DNA of 10,185 bases from an uncultured Alphaproteobacteria bacterium (GTDB taxonomy: Bacteria > Pseudomonadota > Alphaproteobacteria > UBA7985 > CAJQQZ01). Positions 2,082 to 10,185 of the stretch are shown here, one piece after another. A program made the translations under genes and the position numbers. How positions within the stretch are numbered: position 1 is the first letter of the stretch; each line of letters begins with the position of its first letter. The DNA is taken from positions 1 through 10,185 of the forward strand of contig CAJQQZ010000186.1 of NCBI GenBank assembly GCA_905480575.1, read 5' to 3'. The notes beneath the pieces are model-generated. The model ran no database searches. It had not been told where the DNA came from and was given only the letters and a program-made list of their open reading frames with translations.

Positions 2082-2293
2082 TGGCTTTGTTTCCTACCCG
2101 TCTTTCGAACTCGTTGTTTGTGTTGGTGGTAGTTGGATAGCACCGCAGGATTTGCTCGCTGAGCGTAACCGGGAAATGACCGTTTCGCTTGTTCCTTGGC
2201 AAACTGAGCAAGCAGCCCCCCTATATTTGATAGCTACAAATTCAACTTTTCTCGCTACTCTTCTCCTTGAGGAAATATGTGAGGAGAAAAGAC

Positions 2294-3271
2294 ATGATTA
2301 AAAAGCTAATCAGCTCAGCCTGTGTGCTGGCATTTTTTAGCGGCGGCGCTCTCGAAGCATCGGCTCAACAACTAGAAGATTGTTATGCGACGCCAACTGT
2401 CTATAGCGGTACAACCTTAGCCAATTTGGCGGACCGATATTTCGCTGATGTCGACTATCGCTATGCTATTTTGTTGGCAACGAATGCACGGACCTCTGAC
2501 GGATTTCCGTTCATCGGAAACCCGCACCAGTTGCCTTTGGGGAAACAACTTTGTGTCCCTGCGATTACAGAAGCGGAAAGACTAAGAAACCGTTTCTTGA
2601 TGTATATCGAGGCCGTTCAAGACATGGCATTGCCCGTCCCGTCAGAGGTGACGAACAACCTTAGCCCGCTGGATGTATCAGGTCCCGTTGGTGTTGCTAC
2701 TTGGGTTCGTGCCGATCAAGCAGCCTCATATCGCGCCCAAGTGGGGCAAACGATCCAAGCTGGCGGCGATATATGGGTAACCGAGGTGCCAAAGATCCAA
2801 GAATTCTGCAAATCCTATGCGCAAACTCATGGTGACTACTTGCCAGGTATCACATTACGCCTAGAACAGAGACTAGGCATGCCGCCGCACAGTGCCAAAA
2901 CCGCATTTGTTGAGTTTGAGGTCGCAAACCCAGACAAGCAATCGCAGATCTTCAGGCCTTGTGCTTCACCATCTGTGACGACATCAACTTGCGCAATGGG
3001 ACCACCGGCTTCTTGTGATCCAGGTGACGCCCAGTGTCATCGTCATTATGATTTCTTTATGGGGCAGTATTACTATTCTTATGGGGTGTCTCTGCCAGCT
3101 GAATACCCGTGGACGTCGTTGGGTTACACCTTTGATTGGGCACATAAGGCCATCGGATTGGAAGACACGCCTGATTTTGTTCAATACGGCGGCAGTGAGT
3201 ATGTTGTGCCGAAGGGGGCGACGGTTACTGTCAGGGCCGTTTATGATACCGCGGACTATTGCAAGAATTAG
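2294..3271 (+). CDS. Secreted protein of unknown function: signal peptide, LysM-like domain, Cys-rich C-terminal domain
   Basis: GAGGAG lies 7 nt before ATG 2294. The N-terminus MIKKLISSACVLAFFSGGALEASA is a typical Sec signal peptide. Residues ~40-95 (TVYSGTTLANLADRYF...LPLGKQLCVP) resemble a LysM peptidoglycan-binding fold. The C-terminal half has a conserved-looking Cys/aromatic pattern (CASPSVTTSTCAMGPPASCDPGDAQCHRHYDFFMGQYYYSYG) with no family I can name. The tracked start at 2267 is probably too far upstream. Confidence 0.6.
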   Translation: MIKKLISSACVLAFFSGGALEASAQQLEDCYATPTVYSGTTLANLADRYFADVDYRYAILLATNARTSDGFPFIGNPHQLPLGKQLCVPAITEAERLRNRFLMYIEAVQDMALPVPSEVTNNLSPLDVSGPVGVATWVRADQAASYRAQVGQTIQAGGDIWVTEVPKIQEFCKSYAQTHGDYLPGITLRLEQRLGMPPHSAKTAFVEFEVANPDKQSQIFRPCASPSVTTSTCAMGPPASCDPGDAQCHRHYDFFMGQYYYSYGVSLPAEYPWTSLGYTFDWAHKAIGLEDTPDFVQYGGSEYVVPKGATVTVRAVYDTADYCKN

Positions 3272-8625: not shown

Positions 8626-8749
8626 CAACGGTTCGAGTCTTGTGGGGCTAGAAAATTCGTTTTTCCTTTGCGGCTGTAGGCTTGTTCGATTAGGGAGCGC
8701 CTCCCCGACGCAGGCTTGTTACACGTCAACGGTTCCAGGAGGTCTTTGT
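8626..8749 (+). repeat. Two copies of a ~20-nt motif CAACGGTTC(C)AG..TCTT(T)GT (8626-8643 and 8727-8749) with T-loop-like GGTTCGAG / GGTTCCAG cores; also direct repeats AGGCTTGTT (8678-8686, 8712-8720) flanking a GC hairpin GGGAG-CGC-CTCCC (8693-8705)
   Basis: Seen by direct comparison within the LysR-to-tRNA intergenic region. The function is unknown. Confidence 0.3.
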
Positions 8750-8814
8750 TTCTCCACCCGCATGAACGACTTTGTCGCTTTATGTACGGACGGCAGGGAG
8801 TAGTCGGCGGAAAG

Positions 8815-8900
8815 CTAAATGTTCTCGAATGGTTAAAGAGGATCGATTTGATATCGATTGGCAAACGCCTTTGTGGGTTCGAATCCCATCATTTAGACCA
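8815..8900 (+). tRNA. Class II tRNA-like gene, Ser(TGA)-like, atypical
   Basis: Manual cloverleaf: acceptor CTAAATG/CATTTAG (7 Watson-Crick pairs, AT-rich, C1-G72), U8, a 3-bp D stem CTC/GAG with D-loop GAATGGTTAAA (the GG is present). The anticodon stem ATCGA/TCGAT carries loop TTTGATA, giving anticodon TGA with U33 but a pyrimidine at position 37. A long variable arm holds a GGC-AAAC-GCC hairpin. The T arm is GTGGG-TTCGAAT-CCCAT, the discriminator is A and CCA is encoded. Not run through tRNAscan. Confidence 0.5.
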
Positions 8901-8969
8901 TAGGTAGCTCAACGGTAGAGCATCAGATCGTTAATCTGAGGGTTGAAGGTTCGATTCCTTCTCTAAGCA
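8898..8969 (+). tRNA. tRNA-Asn(GTT)-like element, probably degenerate (pseudo-tRNA); its 5' end overlaps the CCA of the preceding tRNA-like gene
   Basis: The D arm GCTC-AACGGTA-GAGC is canonical. The anticodon stem TCAGA/TCTGA carries loop TCGTTAA, giving anticodon GTT but C at position 33. The variable loop is 5 nt. The T arm GAAGG-TTCGATT-CCTTC is canonical. The acceptor CCATAGG/TCTAAGC pairs at only 5 of 7 positions, with C1-C72 and A3-A70 mismatches, and no encoded CCA follows. Confidence 0.35.
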
Positions 8970-9280
8970 TCCAGCTGTTAATTCAGTCCGGAGGCAAATT
9001 TGTGGATGGACCGGAGCCGCCAGTCGTTTCGACGTCTGGCGGAAACTGTTCTGAAGCCGTTGTAAAGTGGCAGATTTGTTGTGATGAGCACGATAACTGG
9101 TTGTCGACTGATAGACTTTTCGAAGGCTTGAAGTTCACCTCCCGCTCTCAAGCTCCGCTCCAAGGAATCCCCGTTTTACAATCGCCATTTGCCTTCGGAC
9201 GTTGGCTGCTGTCTCGATGTTGAGTGCGTAAAAAACGAAAGGAAATTCTAAATGCGGTAGCTATCGCAAGGAGTAAGGAC

Positions 9281-10051
9281 ATGATGAAAGTAATTGAAAA
9301 ACTGCGCGGCTTTGACAGGGTCACCGTCGGCGAAAATGAAAGAGTACTGGTCTTTGAAAAAGGCCTGATCAGCAACGTGTTGAGCGCCGGGGAACATTTG
9401 TTGAAAACCCGAGGTCAAAAGTCAGACTTCGAGTGGTTCGATATCACAAATCCCGTGTTTGTCTCTCATGTTGATCGCATCATGTTTGAAAAGCTGCCTG
9501 TGATTGCGGACCAGCATTTTGTTGAGTTCAGAACGTCAAACGAGCAAGTCGCCGTTATCGAACGCGATGGTGTTATCTTTGCCGTCATGAAACCCGATGA
9601 ACGTTTGATTGTTTGGAAAGATGCGGGACCTTGGAACGCCCAGACCTTTAATCTCGAAGAGAGTCTAAAGGTCAATTCTGCGATGGTTCGCAGGTTGGGG
9701 CAGGCCGGAAAAGCAGGCTTTATGACGTTGCAACCCATCGTCGAAGGCCAGGCCGGTTTGCTTTACGTCGATGGTCAATTGATAGAAACGATTGGCCCTG
9801 GTGTTCATGCCTTTTGGTCCGTTGGCAAAATGGTCCAAGTCAAGGTCATTGATCTGCGTTGGCAGTCCCTGGACGTAACGGGCCAAGAGGTTTTGACAAG
9901 AGATCGCGTAACGATTCGCGTCAACCTTGCGGCGGAATACCGTGTTGCAGATGCGATTGCAGCCGTGACGGAGACCAAAGACTTTGCCGATGCTTTTTAC
10001 AGGGCGCTGCAATACGCTTTTAGGCGAACTCTAGGGGCGAGAACCCTGTAA
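9281..10051 (+). CDS. SPFH/band-7 (stomatin/prohibitin/HflK-C-like) domain protein with ~150-aa N-terminal extension; ends prematurely inside the SPFH domain
   Basis: AAGGAG lies 7 nt before ATG 9281 (MMKVIEKLRGF...). The C-terminal ~100 aa (IVEGQAGLLYVDGQ...QSLDVTGQEVLTRDRVTIRVNLAAEYRVADAIAAV...AFRRTLGARTL) align with the first half of the SPFH fold of QmcA/HflK as recalled from memory. The expected second half, with the WGI..V region, is absent in all frames of the remaining 134 bp. The tracked GTG start at 9224 is probably an over-extension. Confidence 0.65.
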   Translation: MMKVIEKLRGFDRVTVGENERVLVFEKGLISNVLSAGEHLLKTRGQKSDFEWFDITNPVFVSHVDRIMFEKLPVIADQHFVEFRTSNEQVAVIERDGVIFAVMKPDERLIVWKDAGPWNAQTFNLEESLKVNSAMVRRLGQAGKAGFMTLQPIVEGQAGLLYVDGQLIETIGPGVHAFWSVGKMVQVKVIDLRWQSLDVTGQEVLTRDRVTIRVNLAAEYRVADAIAAVTETKDFADAFYRALQYAFRRTLGARTL

Positions 10052-10185
10052 CATCGGCAAAAGTCCGGGGTATCAAGCAGTTTCTTTTTGTCGGATGAGG
10101 TTTGGTAAGTGTGGGATATTGGGTGCGCCGGGATGTGATAGTCGGTCTCCAAGATAGTCCCAGAAATTAATTCCCAGCTTGGCGC

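Follow-up and report, generated by a model that had tools for sequence, protein, structure and literature searches.

A pair of abutting tRNA-shaped RNAs upstream of a truncated slipin gene, a probable member of the predicted band 7-associated tRNA kind

Gene content of the window and structure of the two RNA units

The window, by which we mean the whole stretch of 10,185 nt analysed here, comes from an uncultured marine alphaproteobacterium that, to judge by the homologues of its LysR and slipin, has Hyphomicrobiales-like relatives. Its genes are of ordinary metabolic kinds (a PfkB kinase, an alcohol dehydrogenase, a DAO-GCV_T oxidase, a hydrolase, a fatty-acid hydroxylase and LysR) and are followed by a pair of tRNA-like RNAs and a slipin gene. 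An open reading frame of 334 amino acids between the alcohol dehydrogenase and DAO-GCV_T genes (2267–3271) has no Pfam match, and a perfect 30-nt palindrome (80–109; GTAGTCCTTCCAGCT/AGCTGGAAGGACTAC) is found just 3′ of the end of the PfkB gene (minus strand).

ARAGORN called exactly two tRNA-like genes in the window, a tRNA-Ser(tga) at 8815–8900 and a tRNA-Asn(gtt) at 8898–8969, with the three bases CCA common to both. We refer to them as units A and B. The Rfam tRNA model (RF00005, gathering score 29) matched unit A at 8815–8897 with 47.2 bits (E = 9e-8) and unit B at 8898–8969 with 57.7 bits (E = 1e-10), and both scores far exceed the chance level in a 10 kb window. The original prediction had described two abutting tRNA-like genes that share a CCA and had held their resemblance to tRNAs to be more than chance; both tools agree with it, as neither returned a result in which no tRNA was found. 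Six independent metagenome contigs, all of one strain, carry the region of the pair without a difference. Thus, the pair is not an assembly artefact.

Unit A (8815–8900, plus strand) is a complete, class-II-like tRNA-shaped RNA according to ARAGORN, Rfam and its predicted fold; its minimum-energy structure is a complete class-II cloverleaf. It has an acceptor stem of 7 bp (CTAAATG/CATTTAG, with C1-G72 and five A/T pairs), an anticodon loop TTTGATA with U37, a variable arm of 14 nt, A73 and an encoded CCA at 8898–8900. Unit B (8901–8969, plus strand) begins directly 3′ of this CCA, based on ARAGORN, Rfam and the family alignment. The tRNA finders place its start at 8898 because they count the CCA of unit A as part of it. 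The acceptor stem that they call (CCATAGG/TCTAAGC) contains the mismatches C1xC72 and A3xA70, and only four inner pairs (TAGG/TCTA) are left. The D and T arms of unit B are canonical, its anticodon stem is TCAGA/TCTGA with the loop TCGTTAA (C33, ‘GTT’), it carries A73 like unit A, and it does not encode a CCA. In its minimum-energy fold the three arms form and the acceptor stays open. Every oddity that had been predicted for the two units (C1-G72, U37, C33 and the acceptor mismatches) is therefore present in the sequence.

The pair is embedded in a longer non-coding leader. A structured segment lies 5′ of unit A (8727–8792, plus strand) and contains two hairpins, GGAG...CTCC and CGAC-TTT-GTCG, followed by ATGTACGGA. 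The rest of the leader runs from unit B to the start codon of the slipin gene (8970–9280, plus strand) and aligns in part with other alphaproteobacterial leaders. It contains no credible open reading frame and a weak terminator-like hairpin at 9056–9071. A scan found no sigma-70 promoter-like site between the pair and the slipin gene, and no sigma-54 promoter above chance in the window leader.

The slipin gene (SPFH/Band-7 family, Pfam Band_7; 9281–10051, plus strand) starts 311 nt 3′ of the end of unit B at 8969 and lies on the same strand. It is truncated. Its product is 57% identical to a Nitratireductor slipin of 380 residues (P0122) over residues 1–255 only and is without about 125 C-terminal residues; in L001, the longest matching contig, it is called as a 256-aa gene. 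A breakpoint and unrelated sequence follow (10046–10185, no strand assigned), in which no frame continues the slipin, and the tail after the break extends for 134 nt to the contig end. L001 and the window both stop at 10185 and the other five contigs stop earlier, which suggests a repeat or an insertion. The tail resembles neither the IS elements of L007, the nearest relative with a long contig, nor any locus that was fetched. A minus-strand open reading frame enters the window from beyond its end, and 10046–10185 looks like the boundary of an insertion, a rearrangement or a repeat.

Judged from its sequence, the protein partner of the pair is broken in this population. No RtcB gene is present in the 10 kb window. 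Given the truncation of slipin and the lack of a visible RtcB, the copy of the module in the window may be inactive or decaying, and decay seems probable to us. The slipin did not match any of the PADLOC defence models.

Occurrence of the pair beside slipin genes and its conserved anatomy

Metagenomes were scanned with a pattern of a T-loop followed at zero spacing by a TAGCTCA...GGTAGAGC D-arm. The scan returned at least 120 loci, which form a biased sample and not a census, as the pattern demanded abutting units and the window’s own contig was not among them. About a third of these loci share a junction of the type ...CCA(N)TGGA-TAGCTCA and form one family, and the best blast matches to the window, among the matches listed, belong to this family. 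The conserved open reading frame just 3′ of the pairs encodes a slipin of the same family as that at 9281–10051 in the window; the proteins cluster together and contain the same motifs. The next conserved gene encodes RtcB, as identified by motifs and NCBIfam, and in L075 it is followed by an RtcA-like gene.

Among the matches listed, a slipin gene lay at most 1.5 kb downstream on the same strand at 37 of 122 abutting-pair sites, and RtcB followed the slipin at 17 of these 37. The proportion was 23 of 33 for sites with the TGGA-type junction, again among the matches listed. When the TGGA-type sites among these matches with at least 700 nt of downstream sequence were considered (25 sites), slipin was present at all except L072, L120 and L127, and the partial open reading frame of L072 still clusters with the slipins. 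Across loci the pair is upstream of slipin on the same strand, at a distance of 300–700 nt. Among the matches listed, the pairs of L127 (40–196) and L120 (66–221) are the metagenome pairs most like that of the window, and no slipin follows them; downstream of the L127 pair are a small DUF-like open reading frame and a phenylacetate-CoA-ligase-like gene on the opposite strand. The L120 and L127 pairs may be orphan or relocated.

A search by protein identity alone, with no RNA pattern used, supplied four alphaproteobacterial slipin loci (L134, L135, L138 and L139). One is from Nitratireductor mangrovi, where the module lies around 1.759 Mb of CP042301, two are from MAGs of Ahrensia and of Stappiaceae, and one is from a contig whose protein is named a Mesorhizobium sangaii slipin. 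All four have an abutting tRNA-like pair 340–420 nt upstream of slipin, in leaders homologous to that of the window. The pair is conserved in this order, with its units abutting, upstream of orthologous slipin genes in distant bacteria. None of the four loci has RtcB adjoining slipin. The leader segment at 8727–8792 aligns with the leaders of these loci, and the two hairpins within a longer stem are kept in all five. RNAalifold predicted 31 pairs for the five leaders, 15 of them with compensatory changes, and these five sequences are suggestive of a structured leader kept 5′ of unit A, which could be a promoter-proximal RNA or a protein-binding site. Directly 3′ of unit B, the four fetched loci share a hairpin CACC(C)...GGTG(T), and the window has no clear counterpart of it.

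L007 shares genes with the window upstream of the pair, and its LysR is 75% identical. After LysR, L007 has neither the tRNA-like pair nor slipin. As both are missing, the pair and slipin travel as one unit. It had been predicted that the genes on the two sides of the pair could belong to different genomic contexts. The comparison with L007 upholds a break in synteny at the pair; it was not upheld that the pair marks a junction between a LysR side and an SPFH side, because the pair belongs with the SPFH/slipin gene.

Some further loci were noted in the course of these searches. In Escherichia coli (L141, NZ_CP116176.1, 3464–6879), an island between yjbD and lysC, which is present in 1622 of 5426 complete E. 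coli genomes, codes for a slipin family protein together with a nucleotidyltransferase of the DNA polymerase beta type and a member of the zeta-toxin family. Upstream of the slipin gene are a sigma-54 promoter close to the consensus (TGGCACGCTTCTCGCA) and a single element that resembles a T-arm (ATGGGTTCGATTCCCAC), and neither ARAGORN nor Rfam called a tRNA there. The island could be a tractable relative of the module. A scan of genome collections for any tRNA abutting an Asn(GTT) unit yielded, among the matches listed, one cluster of tRNA fragments in Roseivirga, which is unrelated and was set aside. Fused tRNA fragments unrelated to the slipin family were also seen in viral contigs and a Roseivirga chromosome (L010, 2400–2470; L011, 3990–4110; L012, 4650–4950); in these, a T-arm is joined straight to the acceptor and D-arm of another tRNA, and ARAGORN calls none of them. 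Phage and plasmid origins were tried as candidates and dropped. The blastn matches to phages reflected generic tRNA similarity only, the best being a cluster of normal tRNAs in a Ruegeria phage, and plasmids likewise gave generic tRNA matches only.

The two units are conserved in different ways. In unit B (36 loci), the D stem does not vary. Pairing reaches 99% in the T stem and also in the anticodon stem, all five pairs of which show compensatory changes. The inner four acceptor pairs are 81–100% paired, compared with 11–36% for the outer three. As the outer acceptor is unpaired across the family, the two acceptor mismatches of unit B in the window are the family norm. The inner acceptor stem of the window has a compensated A5-U68 pair instead of G-C. 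Unit B starts 0–1 nt after the CCA of unit A across the family. In unit A (28 loci, 27 besides the window), covariation was found in all seven acceptor pairs and a CCA follows the acceptor in most loci. Overall, 92% of cells are paired for unit A and 88% for unit B. In related sequences and alignments that were partly hand-anchored, the covariation score was 0.306 for unit B, compared with 0.090 for shuffled controls and at most 0.084 when partners were slid, and 0.63 for unit A, compared with 0.18 for shuffled controls. Unit A of the window is atypical for the family in its long variable arm and AT-rich acceptor. Thus, the tRNA elbow, formed by the D and T arms, is kept in both units, and their stems are maintained by compensatory changes.

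The anticodon region behaves otherwise. At the ‘anticodon’ of unit B there are 19 triplets in 36 loci, of which GTT is the commonest (nine) and several start with A34; the entropy is 1.61 bits, compared with 0.25–0.33 bits for the D and T arms. A base other than U occupies position 33 in 13 of 35 loci; C32, A37 and A38 are mostly kept, and the loop stays at 7 nt. Among close relatives, the loop diverges by 0.50 per site versus 0.05 in the body of the unit, with positions 33–36 changing ten times faster. The ‘anticodons’ called by ARAGORN differ in all five alphaproteobacterial loci, and the length of the anticodon-arm loop of unit A ranges from 4 to 7 nt in the family. Both the ‘anticodon’ of unit B and the loop length of unit A vary freely between orthologous loci.

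We built a covariance model of unit B (R1) from which the window was left out. It gave unit B of the window 71.0 bits; members outside the training set scored 69–79 bits and genuine tRNAs up to 69 bits, so that the two were barely apart, and the model was rejected as too weak to discriminate between this family and real tRNAs. Upstream of slipin in L064, L097, L103 and L130 there are repeated units of a D-arm and a T-arm without an anticodon arm, in some cases three consecutive ones, which go uncalled by ARAGORN. As some lineages are without the anticodon arm, the constant core of the RNAs is the tRNA elbow together with an acceptor-like stem. The family is widespread. It occurs in soil and marine bacteria of several phyla, as judged by GC content and gene content, and has no Rfam model of its own: family members matched RF00005 and no Rfam family separate from tRNA.

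Interpretation of the pair

We propose that the pair is a module of the b7a-tRNA (band 7-associated tRNA) type, in which tRNA-shaped non-coding RNAs lie in the leader of a slipin gene and would not serve in decoding. From the sequence comparisons we give this reading a probability of roughly 0.7. In our model, the units would be transcribed with slipin or just ahead of it, fold independently and be cut by the tRNA-processing machinery. One cut by RNase P at the 5′ edge of unit B would release unit A with a mature CCA end and at the same time make the 5′ end of unit B. The junction between the CCA of unit A and unit B may be built for such a single cut that matures both RNAs. By the prediction in the literature, a tRNA-shaped RNA and a Band-7 protein would together provide a cofactor or scaffold for RNA repair of the RtcB type, much like Y RNA and Ro. 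We count against the b7a-type reading that slipin is truncated, that RtcB is neither in the window nor beside slipin in the four alphaproteobacterial loci, that unit A is unlike most unit A sequences of the family, that the covariance model hardly sets family members apart from genuine tRNAs, and that the metagenome loci were preselected for abutting units.

A different role for unit B would be that of a tRNA mimic whose ‘anticodon’ is under diversifying selection. Anticodon nucleases and other toxins that cut tRNAs would take unit B as a bait or decoy, and slipin (with RtcB where present) would report whether unit B had been cleaved or protected. This idea is favoured by the nearly invariant body of unit B, its 7-nt loop with C32, A37 and A38 kept, and the fast change at positions 33–36. 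However, the loss of the anticodon arm in some lineages fits simple relaxed constraint and counts against a decoy. We regard this role as rather unlikely.

Alternatively, the tRNA-shaped folds could be purely cis-acting, that is, signals for processing or regulation carried by the slipin mRNA (for instance, sites of RNase P entry, or sensors that control the stability or translation of the mRNA) and not stable, trans-acting RNAs bound by a protein. The constant strand and position of the pair 5′ of slipin would fit such a role, as would its place within a longer conserved leader with more hairpins, the lack of a sigma-70 promoter-like site between the pair and slipin, and the sigma-54-like promoter that precedes the lone T-arm remnant and slipin in the E. 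coli relative. However, the CCA encoded after unit A in most loci and the full tRNA-like architecture point to discrete RNAs, the L120 and L127 pairs have no slipin downstream, and a weak terminator-like site lies between unit B and slipin. We therefore consider a purely cis-acting leader unlikely. The original prediction offered another set of origins, namely pseudo-tRNAs, tRNAs borne by a phage or island, or the att scar of a tRNA-targeted integration. The units are packed as tightly as in phage tRNA clusters, the Pro-Ile tRNA junction of the Ruegeria phage aligns at 74% across the junction, synteny with L007 breaks at the pair, and a breakpoint lies 1.1 kb downstream of it. On the other side, a search of the whole window for repeats turned up no tRNA fragment in direct repeat, on which grounds the att site was discarded; the window contains no integrase or phage gene, and its GC content is flat (0.45–0.54) with no shift across the site. 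Three pattern scans of the IMG/VR viral collections found nothing related, and the module is conserved at unrelated chromosomal sites. The features that had looked aberrant, such as the short acceptor of unit B, its free ‘anticodon’ and its non-U33, are family traits with compensatory changes, including the A5-U68 exchange in the window, and not random decay. We find it very improbable that the pair is such a relic or scar.

It is also conceivable that the units are genuine decoding tRNAs of an unusual form, reading Ser (UCA) and Asn (AAY) codons, as both pass the Rfam gathering score for tRNA and unit A, which encodes a CCA, forms a perfect cloverleaf. The original prediction had doubted this, and we agree that these are not ordinary decoding tRNAs. 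An elongator tRNA has a 7-bp acceptor, U33 and a purine at position 37, whereas unit B is three acceptor pairs short, carries C33 and encodes no CCA, and unit A has U37. Bacterial Ser and Asn tRNAs normally carry G73, whereas both units carry A73. Elongator tRNAs also keep their anticodon among orthologues, and the orthologous loci described above have unrelated ‘anticodons’, several of them beginning with A34. A decoding role thus has hardly any probability in our judgement.

These distinctions matter for annotation. Gene callers will label the units tRNA-Ser and tRNA-Asn, which inflates tRNA counts and suggests false integration sites, and recognition of the units as Band-7-associated RNAs corrects these labels. 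In addition, the anatomy of the pair (a full unit A with CCA, an abutting unit B with a short acceptor, and a free ‘anticodon’) leads to testable predictions for a tRNA-shaped RNA beside an SPFH protein and an RNA ligase. The module is tractable through cultured hosts with an intact copy (Nitratireductor mangrovi and Mesorhizobium) and through the E. coli relative.

Comparison with known RNA systems

The pair resembles phage tRNA clusters such as that of Ruegeria phage vB_RpoP-V13 (Pro-Ile-Tyr-Gln) in its near-zero spacing and in a similar junction, ...GACCATAG... In contrast to the window pair, the phage units have complete acceptors and normal anticodon loops, lie among phage genes and show no linkage to slipin.

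A likeness is also seen with YrlA and other Y RNAs that act with Ro (Rsr) in rsr-yrlBA-rtcBA operons. In both cases a tRNA-shaped non-coding RNA lies beside a candidate scaffold protein, often near RtcB, and the tRNA-shaped domain of YrlA, like the pair, has a D/T elbow and an acceptor-like stem. However, the units of the pair keep an anticodon arm and resemble whole tRNAs, their partner is a Band-7 protein and not Ro, and they have no Ro-binding stem. The window contains no Rfam Y-RNA match and no gene for an Rsr or TROVE-domain protein.

The system that the pair resembles most in its gene neighbourhood is b7a-tRNA. The 2016 abstract of Burroughs and Aravind reportedly names modules that combine SPFH/Band-7 and ‘a novel tRNA-like molecule’ as potential scaffolding cofactors. 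As bioRxiv 10.1101/312249 summarizes the prediction (Burroughs and Aravind, 2016, Nucleic Acids Res 44:8525), b7a-tRNA lies beside Band-7 and RtcB and would have a role in RNA repair. The same preprint describes b7a-tRNA as unvalidated as of 2018 and relates a proposal that b7a-tRNA and Y RNA are functionally interchangeable.

The neighbourhood of the pair in the window differs from those described for b7a-tRNA in that the slipin is truncated and RtcB is not beside it, the latter also being true of the four alphaproteobacterial relatives. Past the slipin break the contig continues for 134 nt, and RtcB may be encoded elsewhere in the genome. The family also consists of two abutting units of distinct anatomy, whereas the summary of b7a-tRNA in bioRxiv 10.1101/312249 mentions one tRNA-like RNA. 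In other respects the two agree. As with b7a-tRNA, a predicted tRNA-like RNA adjoins a Band-7/slipin gene, and RtcB, sometimes with RtcA, comes next in many related loci. In the window, the tRNA-like genes are immediately upstream of the Band-7 gene and co-oriented with it; its slipin, although C-terminally short, is of the same subfamily as those linked to the RNA and RtcB (57% identity to P0122); and the tRNA-like structure of both units is backed by compensatory changes. In sum, the window pair probably adds one member, itself probably decaying, to the known predicted b7a-tRNA kind.
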